From positions 44,869-108,868 of IMG/VR virus record IMGVR_UViG_3300037991_002562: a DNA stretch of 64,000 nt; one strand, 5' to 3'. Of the stretch, positions 5,622-64,000 are shown piece by piece; position 1 is the first letter of the stretch, and each line of letters opens with the position of its first letter. The notes under the pieces were generated by a model. That model saw only the letters and a list, made by a program, of their open reading frames with translations. It did not search any database and was not told where the DNA came from. A program made the translations under genes and the position numbers. The DNA comes from a virus (Duplodnaviria > Caudoviricetes).

Positions 5622-6356
5622 ATGGCAAAATTTAGCTGGAATGAAGATAACACTGCGCAACTAGTAGACATGGTAGGCGCTCCTGACGAGACAATTACTC
5701 AAGCGCAACTAATCGAAGTAGCAGAACAACTTGGAACATCAGCACGTTCTGTAGGTTCTAAACTTCGTAAAATGGACTACAGCGTACAGAAAGCTAGCGA
5801 AGCTCGTAGCTCAGCATGGTCTGAAGCAGAAGAAGCAGAATTAGTAGCATTCTTAGACGCGAACAGCGGTGATTACACTTACGGCGAAATCAGCTCTGCT
5901 ATCCTAGGCGGGAAGTTCTCTCCTAAACAAGTACAAGGTAAAGTACTTAGCCTAGAAAAAACATCTGACGTAAAGCCAACTGAAAAAGTTGCTCCACCAC
6001 GTAAATATACTGAAGAGCAAGAAGCTAAGTTTGTAGAGATGGCTCAAGCCGGTGAAAGCCTTGAAGCAATTGCAGAAGCGTTAGGTGTAAGCCTTAACTC
6101 TGCTCGCGGTAAAGCTCTAGCGCTAACTAAGTCTCATAATATCGAGATGCCTAAGCAAGCGAAAAGCAACGCACAAGCTCGCGTAGACGTATTTGAAGGC
6201 GTTGACGTTGAAACAATGACAGTAGAACAACTAGTAGAAGCTACTGGACGTACTGCTCGCGGTATTCGTTCTACACTATCTCGTCGTGGCTTAACATGCG
6301 TAGACTACGATGGTGCTGCAAAGCGTAAGAAGTTAGACGAAGCATCTGCTGAGTAA
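5622..6356 (+). CDS. D5: T5 D5-like DNA-binding transcription regulator
   Basis: Repeated W/Y-x-E-E HTH-like units; position after ligB. Confidence 0.85.
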   Translation: MAKFSWNEDNTAQLVDMVGAPDETITQAQLIEVAEQLGTSARSVGSKLRKMDYSVQKASEARSSAWSEAEEAELVAFLDANSGDYTYGEISSAILGGKFSPKQVQGKVLSLEKTSDVKPTEKVAPPRKYTEEQEAKFVEMAQAGESLEAIAEALGVSLNSARGKALALTKSHNIEMPKQAKSNAQARVDVFEGVDVETMTVEQLVEATGRTARGIRSTLSRRGLTCVDYDGAAKRKKLDEASAE

Positions 6357-6421: not shown

Positions 6422-7810
6422 ATGATAAATACTGAAGGCTTAGTCCTTAAATTGCTGATGCACAGTAAAGAGTCAGAACAAGCATTATTAGCCTTCTCAA
6501 GAATAAAAGAAAAGCACTTCTCAGAATCCTTCAAACCCGTATTTACTGCTATTAAAGATTTCTACCACGAGTTCAACACTCTGCCATCTAGTAACGACAT
6601 TTCTATTTATAGAGGAAGGTCGGCTAGGGTTCAAGTAGTTCTAAAGTCTATTCAGAATTTAGATATTACTAACCTAGACTTGGATGTAGCGGTGGAAGCT
6701 TTATTAGATAACCACTCCCAAGAGGTTGCACTAGATTTAATAACCGACTTTGTAGACAACGTATCTCTCCTTTCTAGGAACGAAATGTTGGATACTTTGG
6801 CAAGACTACCTATCTACTTTGAACAAGAGATTGAGTCTCCAGAGAAAGTATTAACTGCGCATGAACTAACAGCGTTCAAACCTAAAGAAGACATTCTTAA
6901 AGACGCAGTTCTACTTGGGTTATCTAATACGTGGGACAGTAAAATAACGTGTCAAATAGAAGACCTAATACTGTTAGGGGGAAGAAGAGGATCCGGTAAA
7001 AGTATTGTATGCTCCAATATTGTAGCAAATCAAATGGAGCAAGGAAACGTTGGTGTCTATTTCACAATAGAAATGACTGGACAGGAGACATTCCAGAGGA
7101 TACTTTCTATAGTTACTGGTGTTAACTATGGGAATATAAAAGCTGGTGAATTTAGTGTTGAAGAGCAAAAGGCTATCGCAGAATGGCTGGCTAGTCAATA
7201 CGAAGAGTCAGAAGATATTTTAGATGAATTTTTAAAGTCTGACGACCCTGACCCTTACTTATTCGAAAAACAACTAAAATCAACTTGCACACCTATTAAG
7301 GACAGTAAGTTAGTTGTTATAGATGACAGGGAACTTTCACTAGCATCAATCGATGTTCAGCTATCAAAACTAAAAGCCAAGTATGGCGATAGGTTCAAGG
7401 TTGCCGTAATAGATTACGTTAACCAAGTGGTTTGGGATGGTCACGAATCTGAAATGTATGATTGGAAGATACAGACTATTATAGCTAAGCAACTTAAAAA
7501 CTTAGCTAGGAAATATGGAATACTAATTGTTTCACCTTACCAGATAGACTCTACCGGAGAAGCTAGACTTTCTAAAGGTATACTAGATGCTTGCGATACA
7601 GCACAGCTACTCGAACCAGATAAGGAAACCAGCACAATTACATTCATACCGTCAAAAGTTAGAAGCAGTTCTGACGAAGTTACATCGACGGTAGCAATAG
7701 CATGGAATTGTCTAAAGATACATCCTAAAGAAGTCAATATAGACGACTTGAGACCAGAAGAAGAAAGTAAAGAAAATACTTTCCCATCTGGCGCAGGAGA
7801 GTTAGTGTAA
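6422..7810 (+). CDS. DnaB-like replicative helicase (T5 D6)
   Basis: Walker A GRRGSGKS, FTIEM, VIDY; start moved to ATG 6422 after the terminator. Confidence 0.9.
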   Translation: MINTEGLVLKLLMHSKESEQALLAFSRIKEKHFSESFKPVFTAIKDFYHEFNTLPSSNDISIYRGRSARVQVVLKSIQNLDITNLDLDVAVEALLDNHSQEVALDLITDFVDNVSLLSRNEMLDTLARLPIYFEQEIESPEKVLTAHELTAFKPKEDILKDAVLLGLSNTWDSKITCQIEDLILLGGRRGSGKSIVCSNIVANQMEQGNVGVYFTIEMTGQETFQRILSIVTGVNYGNIKAGEFSVEEQKAIAEWLASQYEESEDILDEFLKSDDPDPYLFEKQLKSTCTPIKDSKLVVIDDRELSLASIDVQLSKLKAKYGDRFKVAVIDYVNQVVWDGHESEMYDWKIQTIIAKQLKNLARKYGILIVSPYQIDSTGEARLSKGILDACDTAQLLEPDKETSTITFIPSKVRSSSDEVTSTVAIAWNCLKIHPKEVNIDDLRPEEESKENTFPSGAGELV

Positions 7811-8697: not shown

Positions 8698-11052
8698 ATG
8701 AAAATAGCAATCATCCAAAAATGCCCATCCAAGACTGAATACCAGAAACTGTTCATGTTACAGAATCACGAGGTAGAAGTCTACAACCTATCAAGTACTA
8801 AGGTTTCTCGGCTACTTAAACGAGATATAGACCTTACAGACTTCGACCCAACTAAATTCGACTACGTAATCCTCGTAGGTTCTGAAGCTCTAAAAAACTA
8901 TACAAAACAAACATCAGTAACCGATTATACCGGAAAACAAGTTGAAGGTAAATGCGGTTATCCTAATTTCATTGCTAGTATATCACCAGCGATGTTAGCA
9001 TTTAAACCAGAAAACAAGCCTGTGTTTGACTTAACTGTAAAAGCTATCCATAATATATTTGGTGGCGTTGAAGAAGACATGGCAAATAAAAACTACGAGT
9101 TCTACAGAGAGACTGAAGATATTAAGAAGTTTCTTAGAAGAGCTGAAGCCCACGGAACTGACGTAGTAGCGCTCGACTCCGAAACCAGTGCATTAGAACC
9201 TAGAGAAGGGTACATGCTCGGTATCTCTGTAACATACGAGCTTCACCAAGGAGCTTACCTAGACTCGGATGGACTAGACCAAGAATGTGTTGATATTCTA
9301 CAAAAAATTATCGATACTAAGGACGTAGTATTCCACAATGCTAAGTTCGATATGAAGTGGTTTCTTTACCATTTAGGCGTAAGGTTTGACCACAGAGAAG
9401 GTCACGTACACGATACAATGATTCTTCACTATCTGTTAGACGAGCGACAAGGTACTCACGGACTGAAATCTTTGGCACTTAAATACACAGACTTAGGGGC
9501 ATACGATGATGAACTTGACGAGTGGAAGAAAGATTACATAAAACAGTATTCTATTGACCCAGACACATTCTCGTATGACCTAATACCTTGGGACATAATC
9601 AAGGTGTATGCAGCAAAAGATACAGATGCTACATTCCAACTGTTCCGTAAGTTCTACCCTATTCTTATTAAGAACAACAAATTAAAATACTGTTACGAAG
9701 AGCTACAACTACCAGCACTTCACTTCTTAACTAGAATGGAAGACCGTGGAGTTCCGGTATCTGCTAACAGACTTCTAGAAGCTAATAACTACCTAGACAG
9801 TCAGCTATCAGCTTACCGTAAGCAGCTATGGGAAGTAGAAGAAGTAATAGAGCTAGAGCAAGAGCAAGGAGCAGTGTTTAATCCTAACTCTGTTCAGCAA
9901 ATTAGAAAGCTACTGTTTGATAAAGTAGGCTTAAAACCGACAGGTAAATTGACAGGCACAGGTGCAATCTCAGTAGACAAAGAGGTGCTAGACACTCTAG
10001 CTGCTCAGCATAAAGTACCAAAGCTTATTAAGAATATCAGAACGCATTTAAAACTTAAATCAACCTACATATCTAAGCTAATACCGTGTATTAATTCAGA
10101 TAGTAGAGTACGAACAGGGTTTCACCAAACCACGACCACTTCGGGTCGATTGTCCTCATCAGGTCGATTTAACATGCAGCAGCTCCCAAGAGATAATCCT
10201 ATTATCAAAGGTTGTGTAGTTCCTCCTGAAGGTTATAAAATAGTAGCCTTGGACTTAACCACCGCAGAAATTTATTTTGCGGCTGTCTTATCGGAAGATA
10301 AGGCAATGCAGCAAGTATTTATCAACATGAAGAAAGACCCTGATAAATACCCTGATTTTCATAGCAACATAGCACATATGGTGTTTAACTTACCATGCGA
10401 ACCTAAAGATGTAAAAGAGTTATATCCTGCGCTAAGACAGGCAGCAAAAGCCATTAGCTTCGGCATTTTATACGGGTCAGGCCCAGCTAAGGTAGCAGAA
10501 GCGGTTAACCTAGCGTTCCTAGAGAATGACCAACCTGCAACTTGTACTGTAGAAGATGCTAAAGGATATATCCAAGACTACTTCCGCAGATTCAAGCAGC
10601 TTAAACGTTGGATTGATGAATGTCATAACCAAATCAAAGAGCATGGTTTCATCTATAACCACTTTGGTAGAAAGCGCAGACTACGCAATATTAACTCTAA
10701 AGACAGAGGTATTGCTTCTGGTGAAGTTCGTTCAGGATTTAACGCAATCATCCAGTCTATCTCTAGTGATTCATTGCTACTAGGTGCGATTGATGCTGAT
10801 AAGGAAATCATAGAAAAAGGATTCCCTGCTGAAATCTTCGCTCTAGTACATGACTCCATCGTGGCAATTGTTAGAGAAGACAAAGTAGAAGAGTACATCG
10901 AGCTAGTAACTAGAAATGTACAAAAAGACCGTGGATGTTCAATCCCTGATTGTCCTGTTGGTCTAGAGGCGGACTCAGAGCCAGGTGGTTCTAGAGACTA
11001 TTCTTGTGGTAAATTAGAAGCTAAGTATCCAGACTTAGCTAAGGTAGCATAA
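8698..11052 (+). CDS. Family A DNA polymerase with 3'-5' exonuclease
   Basis: DSET, HNAKFD, YAAKD exo motifs; TSGRLSS, DLTTAE, RQAAKAISFGILYG, VHDS. Confidence 0.97.
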   Translation: MKIAIIQKCPSKTEYQKLFMLQNHEVEVYNLSSTKVSRLLKRDIDLTDFDPTKFDYVILVGSEALKNYTKQTSVTDYTGKQVEGKCGYPNFIASISPAMLAFKPENKPVFDLTVKAIHNIFGGVEEDMANKNYEFYRETEDIKKFLRRAEAHGTDVVALDSETSALEPREGYMLGISVTYELHQGAYLDSDGLDQECVDILQKIIDTKDVVFHNAKFDMKWFLYHLGVRFDHREGHVHDTMILHYLLDERQGTHGLKSLALKYTDLGAYDDELDEWKKDYIKQYSIDPDTFSYDLIPWDIIKVYAAKDTDATFQLFRKFYPILIKNNKLKYCYEELQLPALHFLTRMEDRGVPVSANRLLEANNYLDSQLSAYRKQLWEVEEVIELEQEQGAVFNPNSVQQIRKLLFDKVGLKPTGKLTGTGAISVDKEVLDTLAAQHKVPKLIKNIRTHLKLKSTYISKLIPCINSDSRVRTGFHQTTTTSGRLSSSGRFNMQQLPRDNPIIKGCVVPPEGYKIVALDLTTAEIYFAAVLSEDKAMQQVFINMKKDPDKYPDFHSNIAHMVFNLPCEPKDVKELYPALRQAAKAISFGILYGSGPAKVAEAVNLAFLENDQPATCTVEDAKGYIQDYFRRFKQLKRWIDECHNQIKEHGFIYNHFGRKRRLRNINSKDRGIASGEVRSGFNAIIQSISSDSLLLGAIDADKEIIEKGFPAEIFALVHDSIVAIVREDKVEEYIELVTRNVQKDRGCSIPDCPVGLEADSEPGGSRDYSCGKLEAKYPDLAKVA

Positions 11053-45570: not shown

Positions 45571-47544
45571 TTAATTTAATCCTATGAATGAAAAGGAGAA
45601 ACCTGGAATAGTAACACTATTTTCTAGTCCTCCACTACCGTTAAAGGAGAAGTATGAATAATCGTACTCTATACCTATAAGGGTGTCTGTAATTTTTACT
45701 AAATAAAAGGTACAACGTATAGTATACCATGTATTCCAATAGGGGTCTCCACTAGGAAGCTCCTCCTTGTCAAATCTATATGTCTCGGAAGTGGAGTAGA
45801 AAGGCACTCTAGAAGAGAATGATGAAAATCCTATAATGCCTTTGTCTTGTGCATATAGCTCTTCCCATGACTGCTGGTCACTAGAGTAATCCCATTCCAC
45901 GGGGGTAACTGAGTAACCCCAACAACTAGAACTCCTAACACTATCAAGTATTATTGTTAGGTCTGTCAATATACCTGTACCAGAAATAAACCCTTCTCCT
46001 TGGGAGTTAGTCCCATGAGACGGTATATTAAATGTATAAACAGGAGTAGTGTGGTCTGTACTCTTACCCATGTACCTCATACGAGTCCTTCCACGACCTG
46101 CATTAAACCAAGTGTTACCCCCTCGTTTAATTATCCCCTTAGTCATTTCAATGTCCCATCCAGAACCACCAGACCCACCAAGAATTTGCACAGCATCGCT
46201 AGGGTTCTGGCCGGAATACACCCCTAAGGGGTCTATCAGGCCGACCACTGGTATTATAGGATCAGATAGATTCATACTATTAACATACGAACCGTCATTG
46301 ACAATACCTGCATAGGCTAGGAACATACCTGAGAAATCTGCCCCATCTACTGTAAAATTATTAGAGTCTAATAGTATACCCGATGCTCCGGTTTTAGCGG
46401 TTTCATAGTTTAAGTCTCTACCACTACTCACTATATTGAATTCATATATCTCAACAGAGTTTATATCCTGAGGTGTCCTAATGTAAGTGTCCCCTGAGGC
46501 GTAGTAAGCCCCTCCTGAACCATAAGCGAAAGACCCGAGAGTATATTCAGCCTGAGCCAAGTTCTCGTTACTAAAATTAATTTTTCTAGTTATTACAGGT
46601 GCTCCGCCTCTTCGGTTGCCTAACTTATCTACAGTAACTACCATAGTTAGACGAGTAGAACTAGGAGTGTAAGATACTGAGTTTCCTGTAGTGCCGTCTA
46701 ATGCATCTGAGAAATAAAACTTTCTAAAGGCATCGTCGGTATACTCAGTTATTCTAATATACTTTAAGCATTTAATATAGTCAAACATACTATGCATGTA
46801 AGTATCGTCACCGTAGTCTACATTAATACCTACCCAATCCTGAAACCAATCTGTAGCAGTCTTGCCCGACTCCACGGCGGGCGGAGCCGCCGGGACTACG
46901 TTAGGATTACATATATGAAGTATCTCATCTCCGGCCCGGTTTACACCAAGAAAGAAGTCGCACGGAGCCTCTGGCTCAGGTCTAGGGGGTGGAGGTGAAA
47001 GTAGGGACGCAGATACTGTGTTTGAGAAAGGCCCGTAAACTACGTCACTGCCTGTGCCCTTCACCATGCGGATTTTAAAGCTACCGCCAGTTTCATGTAT
47101 ATAGCTACTACCCGTGCCAGTAAATACCGTAGTACCGTTTCTTACGACTTCTACCCTTTCCCCAATATCTGTGTTGGGAGTCCAGTCTAATAATACTCCG
47201 TCATATCTACTAGTAGCAGTTAGTACCCTAGTTTCAGGCTTCACGTGAAATATGATGTTTATGGTGTTACTAGGATATAAATTATCTGTTCTTATCTGGG
47301 CTTTTGTAGCGTTAGCTGGTGGTATTACCTTTAACGAATTGGAACTAGTAGAGGTATTAGCCGACTGCCAGTTTCCACCTACTAGCCAATATAAATGGTA
47401 CATCCCTGGACTACTAGGCTCAGTCCATTGCAAGTTAGCATATTTATAGATAGGACTGGTAGAGTTTGATAAGTTTGTTACTTTTTTAGCAGGGTTGTCC
47501 GCCACGAAGTAGACGGATACCGTTCCAGTTGTATATATAGCCAT
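45571..47544 (-). CDS. Putative receptor-binding protein (pb5 position)
   Basis: 657-aa beta-rich protein at the T5 oad locus; positional call only. Confidence 0.55.
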   Translation of the reverse strand: MAIYTTGTVSVYFVADNPAKKVTNLSNSTSPIYKYANLQWTEPSSPGMYHLYWLVGGNWQSANTSTSSNSLKVIPPANATKAQIRTDNLYPSNTINIIFHVKPETRVLTATSRYDGVLLDWTPNTDIGERVEVVRNGTTVFTGTGSSYIHETGGSFKIRMVKGTGSDVVYGPFSNTVSASLLSPPPPRPEPEAPCDFFLGVNRAGDEILHICNPNVVPAAPPAVESGKTATDWFQDWVGINVDYGDDTYMHSMFDYIKCLKYIRITEYTDDAFRKFYFSDALDGTTGNSVSYTPSSTRLTMVVTVDKLGNRRGGAPVITRKINFSNENLAQAEYTLGSFAYGSGGAYYASGDTYIRTPQDINSVEIYEFNIVSSGRDLNYETAKTGASGILLDSNNFTVDGADFSGMFLAYAGIVNDGSYVNSMNLSDPIIPVVGLIDPLGVYSGQNPSDAVQILGGSGGSGWDIEMTKGIIKRGGNTWFNAGRGRTRMRYMGKSTDHTTPVYTFNIPSHGTNSQGEGFISGTGILTDLTIILDSVRSSSCWGYSVTPVEWDYSSDQQSWEELYAQDKGIIGFSSFSSRVPFYSTSETYRFDKEELPSGDPYWNTWYTIRCTFYLVKITDTLIGIEYDYSYFSFNGSGGLENSVTIPGFSFSFIGLN

Positions 47545-47970: not shown

Positions 47971-48092
47971 GTTTGAGATCAGCGCTGTATAGTACTTCTA
48001 TAGTTTAGTCATTTTTCTAAGTGTTACACGCGTTTGAGATCAGCGCTGTATAGCACTTCTATAATTTAGTAATTTTTCTAAGTGTTACACGC
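47971..48092. repeat. Tandem 61-bp direct repeat x2
   Basis: 47971-48031 and 48032-48092, 3 mismatches. Confidence 0.9.
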
Positions 48093-48185
48093 GTGTAAGA
48101 GTACCCCCGTATCTAAATGAGAACAAGTCTCATTACCGCCCTATGGGTATGGGATCGCATACCTTAGTACACGATCCCGATCTTA

Positions 48186-48664: not shown

Positions 48665-50326
48665 CTATGCAATAACTTTTTGGGGGTTCAAGGTGATTAA
48701 TTGAACTTGCCCGTTGCTGTATTCCATCATGTGACCGTGATCCCACGATGACGCGCCCCCACGGTTATAGCCTTGGTTCAGTCGAGCGGTAACGCCTGTC
48801 GTAAACACTGAGCCTATTATGCATGGGCTATGGGTGTGTCCTGTTATTAGGTTTAAATTCCAGTCCTTGAACTGATTTGGGTTTCCTGCGCTCCCGTTAG
48901 CTCCTTTATGTCCGTGTTGCGAGTAATCGAATTTTAACGGTTTAAATGGCTTGTCCATTCGACCAAAGTGCACATTAGTCGGCAACTCTGGCAACGTGGT
49001 TAAATCAGCATTTTCTAGGGCGATTTGCAACGCATTTTTCTCATGTTCGCCTTGGTCTAAGGTATCGCACACTAGCCAGTTAAGCAGATAGTATAATTTG
49101 CTGTTGTGGCTGTCCTGCTTGGGGTTGACGCTGCTATCATCCAGCCAGTTGTCTAGGGCTGAGTTATGGTTGCTTTCAGTAATTGAAACGGTATCAACTA
49201 GGGTTGATAGTTCGGTCAACTGATAGATCACCTGTTTAAGATCGTTCTCAACGCTTTCATGTCGATTTGCGTACAAGTGTTTCCCACTGTTACGGTTATG
49301 GTGAGATCTTGTGCTAAAGTGTAAAATATCATCAACTGCGATCACACTTGGTTTAATCCGATCCAAAAATTCAACTGTTTTTTCCCAATACGCTTGGTCA
49401 TAAACTTCACAGTGTAGATCACCTAGCTTTCCGGCTTCTGGTAACTTGCCATAAAAATATTCGAGTTCAGGTAACACCACATTCAACGATCCGTCATCGC
49501 CTTGAAAGACGTTGGTAACATTATAGCCACCGTCGCACTTGTAAACGATCATGGCTGCCTGCTTGTGATCTTTTTCCGCTTCTGCCCCTGCGCGGCTTCT
49601 GGTGTAGTTGTACGCGGTACAGCTACCAGTAGTGACCGCCTTTGTGACAGATTGATCATTGAGTCGCGGCAATGTTTTATACTGTTGCTTGGGGCTTGCT
49701 ACTACCGTGATCAATTCACCGCTGTTCAGCTTTGCCGCTGCGTTAACTGGTACTTTGTTAGTCGGTAGCACTGCCGCTGTGCTGGCAACTAGGCAAGCGT
49801 TTTTCTCGAATAGCCAACAATCATCAAGCTGTAAATATTGTAGGATCTTAGGATTGAAAACTTCTTCCTCTTTCTCTACCGCTGGACTAAAGGCGTTTTT
49901 GTTATAGTAAACGGGCATTACCATTAAACGCGCATCTAGGCTGGCAGATTTCATGTCATCGACTAAGGCAAGAAGTTGATCCTCAAAGCCTGTGGTAATA
50001 GTGTTATTTTGTGCGCTTGTAATTACGAAAACATCACCGTCTAGAACTGGTAATAAATCGCGCTGTGATTGCGTGTAACCAACTTGTGTATCTGCCGCTG
50101 GTTTAGTCGCTGCGCTTGGCTTTTTCGCTTTCTCTGCCTCTCTCTGGCGTTCTAGCTCCTCAATAACTAGCGGCATTAAGATAGATGCGTCACCATTAAG
50201 ATCAAGGTTATGGATCGCATCCTCAACAACTTCCAAGCGTGAATCACGTTTACGCTTGCCTAAAAGGTTATTTTCTGCGCACTCTGCGCAGAGTAGATCA
50301 AATTTCTTATCGTTTAAAGGTTTCAT
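48665..50326 (-). CDS. A1: Pre-early A1-like protein (host DNA degradation/second-step transfer; metallophosphoesterase fold)
   Basis: ITSAQNN, TTGSCT..NY...AG, GDLH, ESNHN, QHGH, GHTHSP; 553 aa. Confidence 0.9.
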   Translation of the reverse strand: MKPLNDKKFDLLCAECAENNLLGKRKRDSRLEVVEDAIHNLDLNGDASILMPLVIEELERQREAEKAKKPSAATKPAADTQVGYTQSQRDLLPVLDGDVFVITSAQNNTITTGFEDQLLALVDDMKSASLDARLMVMPVYYNKNAFSPAVEKEEEVFNPKILQYLQLDDCWLFEKNACLVASTAAVLPTNKVPVNAAAKLNSGELITVVASPKQQYKTLPRLNDQSVTKAVTTGSCTAYNYTRSRAGAEAEKDHKQAAMIVYKCDGGYNVTNVFQGDDGSLNVVLPELEYFYGKLPEAGKLGDLHCEVYDQAYWEKTVEFLDRIKPSVIAVDDILHFSTRSHHNRNSGKHLYANRHESVENDLKQVIYQLTELSTLVDTVSITESNHNSALDNWLDDSSVNPKQDSHNSKLYYLLNWLVCDTLDQGEHEKNALQIALENADLTTLPELPTNVHFGRMDKPFKPLKFDYSQHGHKGANGSAGNPNQFKDWNLNLITGHTHSPCIIGSVFTTGVTARLNQGYNRGGASSWDHGHMMEYSNGQVQLITLNPQKVIA

Positions 50327-50391: not shown

Positions 50392-50907
50392 TTAATGACC
50401 GTGAAAAGGAACGTGAATTGCTTTCATGTTCAAGCGCTGTGCCATTTGGCAGTTTGCTAGATTATCATCGACCAAAAATGATCGCGATAGCTCAAGCGAT
50501 GAAAACGCGCGGGTTAAGTGGTACTCTTTTAACTCAAAATCACGACGGCGATCATTCTCGCCCTCTCTGGAAAAGATCGCGGTAGGTTTGATTCCGTTCT
50601 TGCGTAGCCACTTGTTAGAATTATTGCACATAACGCGAGCAGTGCAAACAAAAAATGATCTTCCTGCATCAGTTAGGAACTGCGGCACTTCTGCCAGTGG
50701 CATAACTTGATCTTTTGCAATGTTTGCCGCTGTCGATAATTTGCGGTACATTTCAAGGTTAAGCGATCCATCTGGGTGTATCGCTTGGCGGTGTGTAGCA
50801 TCGATCACCACACCATCAAGATCAAAAATAGGTATAATGCTCTGATCCAATAGGATCGCATCAGTCATTTGAAGCGCTGCGGCTCTGGTATTTTGAATTG
50901 TTAACAT
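50392..50907 (-). CDS. dmp: HAD-family deoxynucleoside-5'-monophosphatase
   Basis: FDLDGVVID..HR, G.LNL..Y, CTARVM, VDDN. Confidence 0.85.
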   Translation of the reverse strand: MLTIQNTRAAALQMTDAILLDQSIIPIFDLDGVVIDATHRQAIHPDGSLNLEMYRKLSTAANIAKDQVMPLAEVPQFLTDAGRSFFVCTARVMCNNSNKWLRKNGIKPTAIFSREGENDRRRDFELKEYHLTRAFSSLELSRSFLVDDNLANCQMAQRLNMKAIHVPFHGH

Positions 50908-51429
50908 CTGGTTAACTCCCGTTTAAGGTATATAAAAATATACGTTGGGGCGTTGTGCCTCTCAACTGTTACCCATTATATATAGCAATAAACTTTTGTC
51001 TACATTAGTTTTTATACGTATGTATGAAATTATATACTTTTCATTTGCTCTATTATGTGCTACCCTACCAGCAAATGCAAATGAGAATGATTCTCAATTG
51101 ACCGGCTCCGCCAGGTCGGAACGACCAAACGCAAATGATAATGATTCGCATTCAACCGCGCCGATTTTCGGTCGCTTTCCCAGTTATGGCTTATTATTAC
51201 ATTTACGTGTAGGTTTGTCTAGGACTGAATAGTTCTAAGAATGAATTTATTTAGGCGATTTTGTTATATAGTGAATTGTGGCATTCTAGCAATTACTGTG
51301 CCAACTCAAAAATCGTGCCAAAGTCGCAAATCACGCACAATGCCTCTAAATGGCTCTGTATTGGGAGCATGAGGCAAGCCAAGCAAGTGCATTGCTACAC
51401 CCCAGAAGTCTTCTCAGATTGCCATTGTG

Positions 51430-52113
51430 TAAGTCATTGATTTTAAAGGGAAAAATAATGCTTGACAAGCCAGTGGCACGATTTTTTCTATTGCATAAGT
51501 CGTGCCAACCTTTATTGGTCAATTTCACTACTTTTTGGTTAAATGCTCGATTGGTACGATTCTTGCTAGTAAAACTTTTTGGTACTGCTAATACAAATGA
51601 GAATGATTCGCATTCTCGCCGATTTTGCATACTGGCACGAAACTTGCTTAATGAGAACGGTTCGCAAATGAGAATAGTTGCTATTTAGAAATGGCATGAA
51701 AGTTGCTAGGGAAGTTATCCACAGGAACGTGTGGGTAAGTGAAGTTATGCACAATACTGTATAAATATACAAGCGCTCAGCAGCAGCTGGTGGACTTATC
51801 CACAGAAAATTGTGGATAAATATACCTGTATAGATATACAGTAGTTTTAAGTTGTGGGTAACTAAAACATACCGTTTAAAGCTCCTGTATCGCATTCTGG
51901 GGGGGTTTTTAGGTCGGAGTAATACTAGGGGTTAGGGTGTGGTAGAGTACGAGGGTGTAAAAAATCCTGACCTGGTGTCGAGAAACTTTACAACGCTAAG
52001 TTATTGATATACAAGGATTTTTTGTTTTTTGACGCTAAAAACTGTCGGGTTTCTTTACACTGGCACGGTTCTGTTATGTGCTGGTTTAGCAAAAATTAGC
52101 TAAGTTATTGATA
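51430..52113 (-). promoter_or_regulatory. Three IHF consensus sites
   Basis: WATCAANNNNTTR exact matches at 51430, 51997, 52101. Confidence 0.75.
51715..51861. promoter_or_regulatory. DnaA-box cluster interleaved with LexA boxes
   Basis: TTATCCACA at 51715, 51796, 51811(-); 1-mismatch boxes at 51730, 51745, 51853; CTGT-N8-ACAG at 51826 and near-match at 51757. Confidence 0.8.
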
Positions 52114-52186
52114 TATAGGGGTTTTTCAAAGTTGGCACTAGGGTTGCATTATATATAGTGTGTCACGGGGCACATACTAAAACAAA

Positions 52187-52537
52187 ATGAGAATTATTAT
52201 CATGTTAAACAAAAAAATCCAAATTACTGAGAATGTTGTTATTTCACTATATCGTTGCAATGCTGAAACTTTGGGTGTAGATATTGTACGCTTTTATTTT
52301 AAAGGCGAATTAGTAGGCACTTACATTTCAACAGTGTTTGAAAAACGTGCAAGCGTGTGTTTATATGAATTAGTTGATGAGGTAGCATCAGAAGAAGCAA
52401 AAGCATTTTTACTAGAATGCTCTAACCAAAAAGAAATACTAAAAACTCTAAAAGGATTAAAAGATATTAGAAAAGACTTGACAAACGAAGATAAAGCTAT
52501 TTTTAATGTTTACCTAAAAGCGTTTGACGTGAACTAA
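52187..52537 (+). CDS. Pre-early hypothetical protein
   Basis: 116-aa ORF; start overlapped by a Fur-like box. Confidence 0.55.
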   Translation: MRIIIMLNKKIQITENVVISLYRCNAETLGVDIVRFYFKGELVGTYISTVFEKRASVCLYELVDEVASEEAKAFLLECSNQKEILKTLKGLKDIRKDLTNEDKAIFNVYLKAFDVN

Positions 52538-52842
52538 GCAAAAACCGTGCCAAGTGAGAAAGTCAAGAACTTTCTCACTTGTGTAAATGAGAATAGTTCT
52601 CATCTGGCCGCGCCGATTTTACAGCATAGCGAGGCGATTGTCAAGTTAAATTTTACACGTCCGACCAGTTAAAAAAGTGTTGCTGTTTTATACTTTATAA
52701 TAAAGTGGGTCGCGCCGATTTGGCAATGCGAATGATTCTCATTTACGCCCGATACGTGTCTGGTATGACCAGTGAAAAAGTTGTTGCGGTCTGTGCGGGT
52801 AGCTGTATAATGATTACATCAACTAGAGACAGGGAGGCAGCT

Positions 52843-52983
52843 ATGAACGTGGCTCAGATTATCGGATTGTTATTTTTAGCTATGGCTCTAGCTACACTTT
52901 TTTCTAGAGAGCCACTGGCATCGATTCCGGTGGCTACAATAGGTGTGTTGCTAATATTTGGCGACACTGAGAAACCAATTTAA
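52843..52983 (+). CDS. Small two-helix membrane protein
   Basis: GGAGG RBS, hydrophobic 46 aa, TATAAT at 52806. Confidence 0.6.
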   Translation: MNVAQIIGLLFLAMALATLFSREPLASIPVATIGVLLIFGDTEKPI

Positions 52984-53049
52984 CCCCGTAGGCGATAACC
53001 GCCATTTTGCCCCGTCTATATGGGCGGGGCACTTTTTAAGGGTAGGATA

Positions 53050-53241
53050 ATGGATAAAAAATTCGGCTGGTATGGTGCTGGCCTAATGGTAATTTTTAGT
53101 TTTACCTTGTTGCCGGTATTCGGTATACTAGGCTTAACGTTGCTTACGGTGCAAGCGGTTAGCACTAAGCAACATAACTTGATAGCTCTAAATACATTCA
53201 GCATACTAGGGCTAATTTTAAACTCTACGGGAGTAATTTAA
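53050..53241 (+). CDS. Small membrane protein
   Basis: Hydrophobic 63 aa, AGGA RBS. Confidence 0.6.
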   Translation: MDKKFGWYGAGLMVIFSFTLLPVFGILGLTLLTVQAVSTKQHNLIALNTFSILGLILNSTGVI

Positions 53242-53242
53242 T

Positions 53243-53641
53243 ATGTTTAAGCAATTCGCAGCAACACAAATCCTAGCTAATGCTATCGCTTCGGTCTTAG
53301 ATTTGGGAAAGGATCTAAGTTGTGAAAATGTGGTTTCTACAATGATGGTAGAGGCAAGCAAAAACGAAATACCAGACGCGGACTTAAAAACTTTCAGCGT
53401 GCACACGATTGTGGTGGCAACGAATACACCAACCACCCCAATTGTCGCAAACCTAGAAGAAATTGCGCAAGCGGATGATCCTTTGATGCATTTGGCTGGT
53501 TGTATACTGAGTGAGGAAAATCTGTTAGGGATACAAAAAACCCTAGAAGCTGAACCTGACGAAGACGAGGAAGAAGGTTCACTTCTTGGTGTGGTTCGTA
53601 ATTTGCGTGGCAATGTGCGCATTGAAAAGGATGTAAACTAA
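53243..53641 (+). CDS. Pre-early hypothetical acidic protein
   Basis: GGAG RBS, operon context. Confidence 0.65.
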   Translation: MFKQFAATQILANAIASVLDLGKDLSCENVVSTMMVEASKNEIPDADLKTFSVHTIVVATNTPTTPIVANLEEIAQADDPLMHLAGCILSEENLLGIQKTLEAEPDEDEEEGSLLGVVRNLRGNVRIEKDVN

Positions 53642-53898
53642 TGCCGTGCCGCGACCCATTGACAGACCACGAACTGGAAGCCGCTAAACTGAAAAACAAA
53701 CTTGACAAGGTAACAGACTTGTTATGTGAAGCCTGTTCAGTTATCGAGACTAACGGTATGGACGACGATTGTAGCCTTGAATTAAAACAGTGGATTGCGG
53801 ATCATTTTCAGGCAGATCAAAACAACGTCAGGCGACAAATTGAATTGTTGTCGGTCGCAGAGTTGCGCAAAGTTGTGAAGTTTTTAGACAGTCTATAG
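53641..53898 (+). CDS. Pre-early hypothetical protein
   Basis: MPCRD...LLCEAC...W...H pattern seen in phage proteins. Confidence 0.65.
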   Translation: MPCRDPLTDHELEAAKLKNKLDKVTDLLCEACSVIETNGMDDDCSLELKQWIADHFQADQNNVRRQIELLSVAELRKVVKFLDSL

Positions 53899-53907
53899 GG
53901 GGCAGCT

Positions 53908-54162
53908 ATGGCGAACACATCCATTGAAAAGGGGCGTTCGCCAACGCCTCTCAGGACAGTAAGCACAATTCGCAGAGAATTGCAAGCGCTAGAAAATCAG
54001 GCTAACGAGATAGCGCGAAGTAGCTTTTTAGCGTATGAGTTTTTATCTAGCGATTTGCTAGAGCAGATTAATGCGAAAAAATCAACTATTAATTTTCTCA
54101 CTACCAGAATAAGACGGCGCAAGCTTTACAACTGGCTGAGAAAGAAGACGGGGTGTAAATGA
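53908..54162 (+). CDS. Pre-early hypothetical basic protein
   Basis: RBS and operon context. Confidence 0.55.
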   Translation: MANTSIEKGRSPTPLRTVSTIRRELQALENQANEIARSSFLAYEFLSSDLLEQINAKKSTINFLTTRIRRRKLYNWLRKKTGCK

Positions 54163-54485
54163 TTACCATACAATTAGACGATATACAAGCTAAATTATTA
54201 GCTAACCTATTAAATGGTGAGAAGCTAATACCGCAAGAAGTGAGGGAGCTTGTTCCACTGGTCAACCAGCTTAATACTGGCACAATGAACCGCGAAAAGT
54301 GGATTCAAGGACTAGCAGAGGGCAAGCGCTACACACATGAATACTTTACTAGTAGTGAGTGGGTACAAGCAAGTGCTGTGCCAGAACATCTGGAATTTGA
54401 AGACGGGGTATTATGCTCTATCGAAGAATTTGAGCGCTACCGCGAAGGCTGGCCGCATGACCTATGGGAGGAGATCGAAAAATGA
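54159..54485 (+). CDS. Pre-early hypothetical protein
   Basis: ATGA overlap; G.R.THEYF...EW. Confidence 0.6.
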   Translation: MITIQLDDIQAKLLANLLNGEKLIPQEVRELVPLVNQLNTGTMNREKWIQGLAEGKRYTHEYFTSSEWVQASAVPEHLEFEDGVLCSIEEFERYREGWPHDLWEEIEK

Positions 54486-54922
54486 TTGACCACCTTGACC
54501 AACTAGTACCTTGGTGTTTATAGCTGAATAAAAAGTGCATATTTATGCACTTTTTTGCATAACCGCGCCACTCCAGCACACGGATTCCCACCTATACAGT
54601 ATAACAGGTCTACACGTCAAGTCAAGCACTTTTTCCTGAATACAAATCTAAATGAGAATGATTCGCATTCAACCGCGCCGATTTTACCACACTCTGACAC
54701 AAAAAACAAGTCCGACCAGTACATGCGAGTGGTTCTCATTTAACTTTTTGAATCTAAATGATAACGATTCGCATTCGCAAAGTAACCTTATTTTTCGACA
54801 AATAAATTTACCGAAGGTTTACCCCGATAGGGGAGCGCAGCGACCTGCGCCAGAGTACGATTTCGACTAGTACTAAACCGACCGCTGCCCCTACGTGTAA
54901 GCTACCCTGAGTACTAATCCGA

Positions 54923-55188: not shown

Positions 55189-55875
55189 TTATATAAGATC
55201 TGAGGCGGAAAAGCAAGGAATTTCTTGAGTTATTTCGGGTTTTTCAGGGATTTCTTGAGGAATTTCAGGGAAATCTATATCTTTAAATGCATACCATTTA
55301 CCGTCTAGAGTATAAGAATTATGGTACTTTGCGCAGTATATAGTATTAAAATTATCTATGCCCTCTTCTTCTACATACTCCCAGAACTCAGCTAAAGACC
55401 ATCCGGCCGGTTTCACCTCGGAGGGTGGTAGGTAGCCGAGGACCCGGTAGGCGTTGTTGTCTATTAAAAATTGTTCAGTCTCATCACCCACCAGCTCTTC
55501 TATTTCAGAGTACAAATCCGGTGATAGTTTGTTTTTTGCTAGGGTCTGCATAGCGTGGAGCTCTTTTATTGCTTTTAGACCTACTTTTCTAACTAGGGGC
55601 AATACCTCGATGCATATGTACTTTAACCACTCTCTTGCATTGGGTTGTACGGACACTCCTAAAAAGAAGTAAATTGTGGATTCATCATACAATTTACGTC
55701 CATCGTCGTGAGTCACGACGCGGGATTGAAAATCAGCATTACGCTTAAGAAAATCATTGACTGCCACCTTAGGCCTTGCGTACCCTAGTTTCTTTGCCAT
55801 GTCTTCCAAGTCAAAATAAAACTTGTTATTTATCTTGTAGAGTGATATACCCTTTTCTAAGTTTAATATATTCAT
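55189..55875 (-). CDS. Bro-N domain DNA-binding protein
   Basis: FYF.LEDMAKKLGY.RP..A...ES.IY......PNA..W...I..EVLP.VRK.G. Confidence 0.8.
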   Translation of the reverse strand: MNILNLEKGISLYKINNKFYFDLEDMAKKLGYARPKVAVNDFLKRNADFQSRVVTHDDGRKLYDESTIYFFLGVSVQPNAREWLKYICIEVLPLVRKVGLKAIKELHAMQTLAKNKLSPDLYSEIEELVGDETEQFLIDNNAYRVLGYLPPSEVKPAGWSLAEFWEYVEEEGIDNFNTIYCAKYHNSYTLDGKWYAFKDIDFPEIPQEIPEKPEITQEIPCFSASDLI

Positions 55876-62551: not shown

Positions 62552-63015
62552 TACTGTAATTTATATACTATAACTTTGTGGTCAATAAAGATTTCTTCTA
62601 ATAGAGTAAGAACTATTTCCCACTTACCACCGGCTCTATCACTACCCATTAAGTATGGTACAGCAATAGTAGAACCTTTTGGAACATATCTTGAAGCTTC
62701 TAACATTGCTTCTACTAGAGCAACGTAACTTAGCTGTCTACTGAAATTATCGTTCATTATACTAGATTTTCTACCAAAATAGTCTTGACCATATAGATTT
62801 AAAACACTACCGTCGGTAGACACACTTCCTAGTATAGAGCTAGTAGCCCTACGGTAGTGTACTGTATCCGCTTCGTAAGCACTAGGAATTCTTTCCATGA
62901 TTTCCTTAGCAATGCCCGAACCGAAGTTATTTCGACAGTTGCAGCAGTGCATAAGGTACTCTACCTCTCCCTCTAATAACGCTGAAACTGCATTGCCTAG
63001 TTTAAAATTAATCAT
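62551..63015 (-). CDS. Macrodomain (ADP-ribose-processing) protein
   Basis: HCCNC..NFGSGIAK, NLYGQ, P..GSDRAGGKW. Confidence 0.88.
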   Translation of the reverse strand: MINFKLGNAVSALLEGEVEYLMHCCNCRNNFGSGIAKEIMERIPSAYEADTVHYRRATSSILGSVSTDGSVLNLYGQDYFGRKSSIMNDNFSRQLSYVALVEAMLEASRYVPKGSTIAVPYLMGSDRAGGKWEIVLTLLEEIFIDHKVIVYKLQ

Positions 63016-64000
63016 AGCATAGCCCTCATACGCACGTCATTCCACGACGTTTTGCGAACCATTTTACCGTTCTTAAAGATAACTTCTAAGTCACCACCTT
63101 CATCGTTAGGTTGTTGGTCATATAGCTCACCATCAATAACTTTTAGGTAGCCTTTAGCTGATTTCTTAGTACCGTTATCAGTTTTAGGGTCTTTGAACAG
63201 TTCTACATGCTCACCACCACGAGTACCTGCTGTAGCTTTAAATGCAATTCCTAGAGTGTCTCTAGTATTATACTGGTATGTATAAGAACCGATACCGAAT
63301 ACAACGTTACATGATGCAAAACCTTTAGCAGCAAGTCGAGCCATAATAGCTTCACAACGGTGAAGTGTGATTGAGTCACCGTAGATAAGACCTACTGAAC
63401 TGTTAAGGACTTTGAACCCGTTTTCGGTTTCACTACCTCCAAAAATATCGTACAGAACTTCAACCGCTCCCTTAACTTCATGTTCGGCTAGTTCTTTGCC
63501 AGTTTTACGACAGTAGTAAGAGCCATTTGATTCAAGGTACTCGCTAGGCTTATAACCTGTTAGAATCTTGACAGGGTCTCCGCTATTACCACAGACCATA
63601 GTACCTTTATTTCTCTTAACAAGAAGTCTTCCTGTAGGTACAGTTACACAGTATACGTTGCCCTTATAATCTACTTTGCTTTTACGTCTAGCTTGTCCTC
63701 CAATTTTATTATTCTTCGTTAAATGGGCAGTATATACATTTGAGAACTTGTCTGACCGTGTATCCTCTCTTTCAGAGATAAAAACACCGTAACCTGCTCC
63801 TATAGCTACTAGCTCTACTACCTCTACTACAGACTTAACAGTAGTATCAAACTTAAAGCGTGTATCTGTACGTCTAGTAGCGTCCCAGTAGGATAGCTCT
63901 TCTATAAATTCTTCACACCAAGTCTTGCTTAAGCTAGCAGTATCGACCCAAGATAAGTCTTTAGTAAAGTTAGACGCGTCACCTACTTCTATATGAATTT
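63012..64000 (-). CDS. nadV: Nicotinamide phosphoribosyltransferase (3' part), intein-interrupted
   Basis: SGDP, LIYGDSIT, VFGIGS, RDT...A.KAT, KDPKTD.GTKKSAKG; frame open to window end. Confidence 0.92.
   Translation of the reverse strand, partial: IHIEVGDASNFTKDLSWVDTASLSKTWCEEFIEELSYWDATRRTDTRFKFDTTVKSVVEVVELVAIGAGYGVFISEREDTRSDKFSNVYTAHLTKNNKIGGQARRKSKVDYKGNVYCVTVPTGRLLVKRNKGTMVCGNSGDPVKILTGYKPSEYLESNGSYYCRKTGKELAEHEVKGAVEVLYDIFGGSETENGFKVLNSSVGLIYGDSITLHRCEAIMARLAAKGFASCNVVFGIGSYTYQYNTRDTLGIAFKATAGTRGGEHVELFKDPKTDNGTKKSAKGYLKVIDGELYDQQPNDEGGDLEVIFKNGKMVRKTSWNDVRMRAML
63585..64000 (-). mobile_element. Intein (C-terminal part) with LAGLIDADG-type endonuclease segment
   Basis: Manual translation ...FIEELSYWDA...YKGNVYCVTVPTGRLLVKRNKGTMVCGN|SGDP: blocks E, F, G, terminal Asn, +1 Ser. 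Confidence 0.9.

Follow-up and report, generated by a model that had tools for sequence, protein, structure and literature searches.

A DnaA-box and LexA-type palindrome module in the predicted first-injected DNA of a marine T5-like phage

Why would a phage that carries replication genes of its own also carry a dense cluster of apparent binding sites for the host proteins DnaA and LexA? The question is raised by a 147-bp element at positions 51715-51861 of a 64,000-nucleotide stretch of viral DNA (hereafter the window, whose numbering is used throughout unless another record is named), which is the right part (positions 44869-108868) of IMG/VR record IMGVR_UViG_3300037991_002562, a full genome of 108,868 bp. 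This 108.9-kb phage is a marine T5-like phage, and the DNA runs that hold the stretch (20 rows, six studies) are all marine metagenomes, with no RNA run among the holders. As a first-pass annotation made from the letters alone had stated, the phage has its own helicase and polymerase; the PHROG matches comprise a DnaB-like helicase, a DNA polymerase, an SbcC-like protein, a tape measure protein, a portal and a terminase. Judging from its sequence and its place in the genome, we consider it probable that the cluster is the marine phage's version of the T5-type module of DnaA boxes and 'palindrome D' in first-injected DNA, where it would act as a dock for host proteins. It is not a copy of a host origin or of datA.

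Clustering, conservation and family-wide pairing

A motif scan covering the whole 108,868-bp genome, with chance estimated by 200 first-order Markov simulations, gave the following features in and around the cluster:

51715-51861, no strand: core module of six DnaA boxes and two LexA-type palindromes
51715 (+), 51796 (+) and 51811 (-): perfect DnaA boxes, TTATCCACA
51730 (-) and 51853 (-): one-off DnaA boxes, TTACCCACA
51745 (+): one-off DnaA box, TTATGCACA
51757-51772, no strand: near-perfect LexA-type box, CTGTATAAATATACAA, with one mismatch in the CAG arm, 3 bp past the DnaA box at 51745-51753
51786-51793 (+): Chi octamer, GCTGGTGG
51826-51841, no strand: perfect LexA-type palindrome, CTGTATAGATATACAG, 6 bp from the DnaA box at 51811-51819
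51430, 51997 and 52101 (-), the last spanning 52101-52113: three strict consensus sites for integration host factor (IHF)

The six DnaA boxes in 147 bp (three perfect, three one-off), the inverted pairs at 51715/51730 and 51796/51811, and the perfect and near-perfect LexA boxes at 51826 and 51757 had all been claimed by the first-pass annotation and were all recovered by the scan. Both pairs are convergent with 6-bp spacers, and 57 bp lie between the first (ending at 51738) and the second (starting at 51796). Architecturally, the module is made of two units of 81 bp each, which begin at 51705 and at 51786 and share their first 34 bp as a direct repeat (family D9). The genome as a whole holds an ordinary number of DnaA boxes (14, against 11.2 +/- 3.3 expected), and what sets the locus apart is their clustering, at six boxes in 150 bp compared with a simulated maximum of one (165 runs) or two (35 runs; n = 200). 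Chance clustering of the boxes is excluded. Three of the genome's four perfect boxes and six of its eight TTAYNCACA boxes fall inside these 147 bp, and the whole-genome scan found no further DnaA-box cluster, leaving a single-copy module without an inverted twin. The palindrome CTGTATAGATATACAG at 51826 is likewise the sole AT-rich CTGT-N8-ACAG in the genome, with 0.065 expected, and we regard it as the counterpart of T5 'palindrome D'.

Two further components that had been proposed for the cluster fared less well. The Chi octamer is indeed present at 51786, in the second copy of the 34-bp repeat, but looks like chance: the genome holds seven against about 3.3 expected by simple arithmetic, which is no significant enrichment, and Chi lies within 150 bp of only 3 of 59 related modules. 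We therefore rejected it as a functional part, and its presence in the cluster is probably fortuitous. The IHF sites on both flanks are also real, but they stand 136-285 bp away and not adjacent; no match to the strict consensus used here, WATCAANNNNTTR, lies inside the cluster, and the window contains five such matches against 4.3 expected. Two of them, identical to each other, occupy the copies of a 28-bp direct repeat at 51995-52022 and 52099-52126 (family D10; 89% alike, 104 bp apart).

Comparison with the closest relative holding the region (locus L007; 93% in A1) showed where constraint falls. The module matches at 141 of 147 positions (95.9%) and the second unit, 51786-51866, at all 81 (100%), compared with 49.7% for the left flank (51560-51690), 38.1% for the right flank (51961-52186) and 86.6% for the A1-proximal stretch, the last counted over coding and non-coding DNA together. 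The module, better conserved than its flanks and than the A1-proximal stretch, is a selected element. Moreover, the differences inside it mostly swap one DnaA-box variant for another: the box at 51745 becomes a perfect consensus in L007, and the box at 51715 becomes TTATCAACA in L007 and in marine variants, a form that T5 itself has and that the accessible text of one preprint counts among the common variant DnaA boxes (10.1101/866236). A variant 44-kb marine contig carries like changes at 51720, 51734, 51749 and 51767 (A>G at 51767, in the near-perfect LexA-type box), and among the changes listed for it none falls in 51786-51866. To the right of the module, about 0.9 kb (51961-52840, including ORF 52187-52537; ORF, open reading frame) shows no similarity to L007 7731-8453, which is 0.7 kb long and holds a different ORF, and similarity resumes at 52841; this break may be a boundary between repeat and unique DNA, or a swapped cassette.

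Across the wider family, an A1-profile scan of IMG/VR returned 80 loci, among them 31 distinct contigs with full-length A1 and 40 loci with partial A1-like matches only. An AT-rich CTGT-N8-ACAG lies within 25 bp of a DnaA box in 27 of the 31 full-length contigs, the four exceptions being a contig that stops short of the region, a fragment of 7 kb, a contig of 26% identity and a locus with little upstream DNA. Counted by palindrome, with the left and right repeat copies of one genome taken separately, 59 of 60 adjoin a DnaA box within that distance (over 663,777 bp), whereas the 40 partial-match loci (684,588 bp) contain no such palindrome at all. Because of these counts, we conclude that the pairing of a DnaA box with a LexA-type palindrome is a family trait, of which the window holds a distant instance. 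In T5, CTGTATAAATATACAG occurs at 6137 and 9332, in the annotated repeats D and D', beside DnaA boxes in both cases, and the copy at 9332 is the one annotated as palindrome D; it fits the 20-nt LexA consensus, as we take that consensus to be, save at one central position. In Vibrio phage phi 3 this 16-mer recurs at 7229, with TTATCCACA close by at 7267 and 7317, the palindrome and boxes lying 440-540 bp ahead of the annotated repeat end at 7769. Family members share the pairing but differ in spacing, orientation and copy number.

This combination bears on what reads the element. Since composition is kept while geometry changes, the module is better read as a set of protein sites than as a DNA structure. 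The sites have also kept the host consensus in phages whose A1 is down to about 30% identity and whose A2 is at 29%, which is why host proteins are probably the readers, and we infer that host DnaA and LexA are more likely in that role than phage proteins. The window adds to this a distant marine lineage that keeps both kinds of host site though their surroundings have changed, which points to host DnaA and LexA as the readers of the element, rather than to DNA shape or a phage protein. A cruciform or knot of palindromes and inverted boxes that physically stalls DNA transfer without any host protein seems very unlikely to us. In its favour, the single-strand DNA fold of 51700-51870 is strong (-31.1 kcal/mol, z = -6.6), and the accessible part of one published discussion of the injection stop signal (iss) mentions secondary structures (PMC13250531). 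The strong fold, however, arises because the sites are inverted; the same-strand DnaA-box pairs of T5 cannot form such hairpins, and what is conserved across clades is site sequence at host consensus, not the pairing pattern.

Position in the predicted first-injected DNA and what the module may do

Genomically, the module lies close to what we predict to be the left end of the phage DNA, in the following setting:

48126-48140 (+): left-end signature AGTCTCATTACCGCC, 15 nt, found once in the genome
48186-48569 (-): A2-like protein, 29% identity to phi 3 A2, E 2e-8
48665-50326 (-): A1 'DNA transfer protein', phrog_1745, E 1.3e-130
50392-50907 (-): dmp-like HAD phosphatase (5'-deoxynucleotidase homologue), 33% identity to phi 3 dmp, E 3e-14; phrog_415
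50908-52186, no strand: non-coding control region of 1.28 kb, between the leftward dmp-A1-A2 operon and rightward small ORFs

Within their first 30-60 nt, the records of T5, phi 3 and three other isolate genomes contain sequence that aligns with the signature, so the physical left genome end is predicted near 48094, directly after two 61-bp tandem repeats (95% alike, 47971-48092); the 99-bp end repeat of the record is most likely an assembly overlap. Counted from this predicted end, the module stands about 3.6 kb inward, preceded only by A2, A1, dmp and the promoter region. By tblastn, the best of 1131 matching records for A1 was phi 3 (46.6% identity), with Tequintaviruses at about 31%; the dmp-like ORF scored under the cut-off for PF25109. 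The pre-early operon is transcribed leftward in the order dmp-A1-A2, whereas T5 and phi 3 are annotated with the opposite order, A2-A1-...-dmp. The module thereby borders a natural pre-early block of three genes, and such a block appears workable because a T5 mutant that keeps only A1, A2, hdi and 009 is viable, according to the accessible text of a recent preprint (10.64898/2026.04.02.716235).

The pause of T5-like phages after injection of the first few kilobases has been an open question since the 1960s. The second-step transfer is called poorly understood in the accessible part of a 2026 PNAS paper (PMC13250531), and the Davison preprint, as far as its text is available, proposes that membrane-bound DnaA at the injection stop signal halts incoming T5 DNA (10.1101/866236). 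The 'membrane anchor' that the first-pass annotation had offered as one interpretation coincides with this, the only published hypothesis for the T5 element; its other interpretation, a datA/DARS mimic with LexA titration, is not supported, as set out below. Mechanistically, we posit oligomers of DnaA on the six boxes and dimers of LexA on the two palindromes, while sigma-54 RNA polymerase may also bind beside the module in the marine clade. Most likely, the resulting complex of DNA and protein would be a dock marking where the first-injected DNA ends inwardly, and it would hold or pause the genome until A1 and A2 act, and it might also block transcription leaving the pre-early block.

Control of the host's own replication offers, in our judgement, a very improbable account of the same sites. 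A datA/DARS-like element would halt host initiation by titrating or inactivating DnaA, and would modulate SOS through titration of LexA; the six DnaA boxes in 147 bp, the three IHF consensus sites within 300 bp and the high copy number that the element would reach after replication are all compatible with it. Against this, the element is a module found family-wide in first-injected DNA beside A1, the cluster itself is free of IHF consensus sites, and one pre-early genome copy would face about a thousand DnaA and LexA molecules per cell. T5 A1 is needed for rapid host DNA degradation (accessible text of 10.64898/2026.04.02.716235), and since A1-type phages destroy host DNA early, control of host initiation would have little point.

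A DnaA-dependent replication origin of the phage itself is highly improbable as well. The DnaA-box cluster does lie in a strand-switch region, and the cumulative GC skew has its minimum near 50-51 kb, but that minimum follows gene orientation. No AT-rich tract adjoins the cluster, the most AT-rich 40-mers of 51300-52300 starting at 52177-52187, about 320 bp off, and GATC is absent from 51500-52100, compared with 86 occurrences in the window. In T5, the origins are near the genome centre and a replication role of the boxes is argued against, in the accessible part of the preprint (10.1101/866236). The view of the first-pass annotation that a DnaA-dependent origin is not needed is thus upheld, with no AT-rich unwinding tract and no GATC near the cluster.

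The dock reading itself must be weighed against a series of observations that tell the other way. Searched by megablast and blastn against 50,697 phage records, from which near-identical entries may have been excluded, the region returned no hit, and it has no alignable similarity to T5, so that only composition and position speak for homology with the T5 repeats. Geometrically, the pairs are convergent with 6-bp spacers here and same-strand, 3 bp apart, in T5; the box-to-palindrome gaps are 6 and 3 bp, as opposed to the constant 10 bp between box and palindrome in 55 of 60 cases among the T5-type loci. LexA, for its part, is not membrane-bound. The two pairs are separated by 57 bp, whereas a spacer of 52 bp between arms is called invariant (10.1101/866236, accessible text), and T5-defined arms are not delimitable here. 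The module is present in one copy where T5 has two; phi 3 also has a single one, and single-copy 'Type 4' phages are reported in the available part of the same preprint. That text also describes injection of the whole T5 genome in vitro into FhuA proteoliposomes, and the accessible part of a BF23 paper (PMC10644984) states that experimental studies of the stop-signal DnaA boxes are lacking. In T5, the deletion 'hegG to 017' (10.64898/2026.04.02.716235) probably removes the upstream module copy without killing the phage. Finally, 51880-52075 shows only weak, gapped resemblance to Tequintavirus right ends; the right end of the terminal repeat was not located, so that the module is only presumed to lie near the true stop point.

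Several other features share the control region and its surroundings. Two ORFs that overlap the cluster or its left flank, 51350-51688 (+) and 51566-51895 (-), were rejected as genes because neither has a PHROG match and indels relative to L007 fall inside both; an Rfam scan of 50800-52700 returned only two chance-level matches, far under the family thresholds. Repeats are abundant:

51588-51690 (+): T5 'DRC'-type repeats, AAATGAGAAT..., joined to a CGCCGATTTT(GCA) element (families D1-D3, D6)
48110, 51074, 51128, 51590, 52180, 52580, 52719, 54645 and 54751: starts of DRC-type copies

The palindromic AAATGAGAATGATTCGCATTC repeat, often joined to CCGCGCCGATTTT, is of the same kind as T5 'DRC' and is present in at least nine copies between 48110 and 54776. 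The AAATGAGAAT repeats match 14-15 of 19 positions of what we take to be the Fur-box consensus, and 10 of the genome's 17 Fur-box-like matches lie within 51077-54760, which we record as a lead only. Just before the predicted left end, ORF 45571-47544 (-), of 657 amino acids, has no Pfam or PHROG match; in T5 the corresponding position is presumably that of the receptor-binding protein pb5. Past the rightward small ORFs, ORF 55189-55875 (-) resembles a Bro-N / anti-repressor (Ant) protein (PHROG E 5e-9; Pfam Bro-N under cut-off), and among the early genes ORF 63012-63599 (-) matches the nicotinate phosphoribosyltransferase family PF04095 (E 2e-18).

Sigma-54-type motifs beside the module

The same control region and the DNA to its right hold a second, clade-specific signal. 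The motif TGGCAY-N5-TTGC occurs six times in the genome, all within 51289-54383 (3.1 kb), against 0.255 expected and at most two in 200 simulations:

51289-51303 (-): sigma-54-type motif pointing to the dmp-A1-A2 operon; identical in L007
51633-51647 (+): sigma-54-type motif, 59 bp upstream of the 51692 motif on the same strand
51692-51706 (+): sigma-54-type -24/-12 motif, TGGCAT-N5-TTGC; identical in L007
52133-52147 (+): sigma-54-type motif upstream of ORF 52187, with the IHF consensus at 52101-52113 lying 20 bp upstream
52538 and 54369 (both -): further sigma-54-type motifs from the motif scan

The -24 GG / -12 GC geometry (GG-N10-GC) is exact in these motifs, the 51633 site fits the extended sigma-54 consensus as we take it to read, and the 52133 motif doubles by score as a sigma-70-like promoter (TTGGCA-16-TATAGT). 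Spacing is strict, with N5 counts of six here, four in L007, two in phi 3 and six in Vibrio phage 70E35-3, whereas the other spacings from N2 to N8 gave none save a single N3 match in this genome; T5 and the T5-type loci contain no TGGCAY-N5-TTGC. The motifs are also tied to the module. The first DnaA box starts 8 nt past the TTGC of the 51692 motif, approximately at the expected transcription start, and the equivalent motif of phi 3 stops 11 nt short of a DnaA box, with the palindrome coming next; two of the 70E35-3 motifs have a DnaA box or the palindrome 7-12 bp upstream of them.

Functionally, these arrangements raise the possibility, which we regard as real if doubtful, that the boxes are transcription operators gating sigma-54 promoters (sigma-70-like ones in T5) and not a transfer stop. 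DnaA would then sit at about +1 of the 51692 promoter with LexA just downstream, so that rightward transcription from the pre-early block would be tied to the replication and SOS state of the host; such a role is compatible with a dock. The concentration of all six motifs in one 3.1-kb stretch, the restriction of the enrichment to N5 spacing in all four genomes, the placement of DnaA box and then palindrome 8 nt (here) or 11 nt (phi 3) past the TTGC, the 70E35-3 arrangement and the IHF consensus ahead of the 52133 motif all argue for it. Conversely, no phage gene matches sigma-54 (PF04552) or an enhancer-binding protein (PF00158), no upstream activator site was identified for the motifs, and three of the six are antisense to predicted ORFs. 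Furthermore, the DnaA/LexA module of T5 and its close relatives comes without a sigma-54-type motif, the orientation of motif plus module relative to A1 is opposite in phi 3, and no sigma-70-like promoter was found overlapping the cluster.

A bolder combination, which we think unlikely, would have the first-injected DNA of marine and Vibrio-clade T5-like phages wired to three host machines: a sigma-54 polymerase parked at -24/-12, DnaA boxes over the starts and adjacent LexA operators. For the phage, which lacks an activator of its own, the complex of DnaA, LexA and sigma-54 would then be a lock that times the entry of the remaining genome or the onset of early transcription. If true, this lock would be a checkpoint for DNA entry gated by host state, and a rare use of sigma-54 by a lytic phage. 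Our literature search on sigma-54 promoters in T5-like or Vibrio phages returned nothing relevant, and the clade-specific motifs offer a further cheap and testable lead.

Comparison with known systems

The DnaA boxes of T5 are already published, and what the present locus contributes is a distant lineage, a minimal context and the addition of sigma-54-type motifs. LexA goes unmentioned in the accessible, text-searched portions of four T5 papers (10.1101/866236, PMC10644984, PMC13250531, 10.64898/2026.04.02.716235), and our search found no literature linking LexA to the T5 pre-early region or to palindrome D.

Among known systems, the repeats of T5 are compared first. According to the available text of the preprint, DnaA-box pairs stand in IRD'-spacer-IRC' and IRC-spacer-IRD and are kept in 25 T5-like phages (10.1101/866236). 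In T5 these are Repeat Region 3 (9332-9462 of AY587007, the region of the injection stop signal) and Repeat Region 2 (6022-6152), respectively, both non-coding pre-early DNA, as here. The likeness extends to paired, clustered DnaA boxes, to an AT-rich CTGT-N8-ACAG beside a box and to AAATGAGAAT-type repeats alongside; in position, the module resembles Repeat Region 2 by standing upstream of the A1 operon, and may also resemble Repeat Region 3 by closeness to the right-hand end of a short repeat. Beyond the geometric departures weighed above, the marine module differs in holding two LexA-type boxes in one module and in the sigma-54-type motifs attached to it, of which T5 has none.

With oriC, datA and DARS of E. 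coli, the module shares high-affinity DnaA boxes within about 150 bp and IHF consensus sites in the neighbourhood, but it has no AT-rich unwinding element, no GATC cluster and no internal IHF site, and it sits in first-injected phage DNA. With the SOS boxes of Gammaproteobacteria, the 51826 box shares CTGT-N8-ACAG with an AT-rich spacer, differing in that no recognisable sigma-70 promoter is overlapped here and in that the palindrome is always tied to DnaA boxes. The resemblance to sigma-54 promoters with IHF-assisted activation lies in the exact GG-N10-GC and in the IHF site upstream of the 52133 motif, whereas an activator gene and an upstream activator site are missing and several motifs run antisense to ORFs.

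In phi 3 (KP280063), the gene order is A2-A1-dmp as opposed to dmp-A1-A2 here, there are two DnaA boxes compared with six, and the module and motif are oriented oppositely relative to A1 and follow a block of six rightward ORFs. Even so, its module at 7229-7351 shows the same local order as the marine phage, a sigma-54-type motif being followed by a DnaA box near +1 and then by LexA-type palindromes and another DnaA box.

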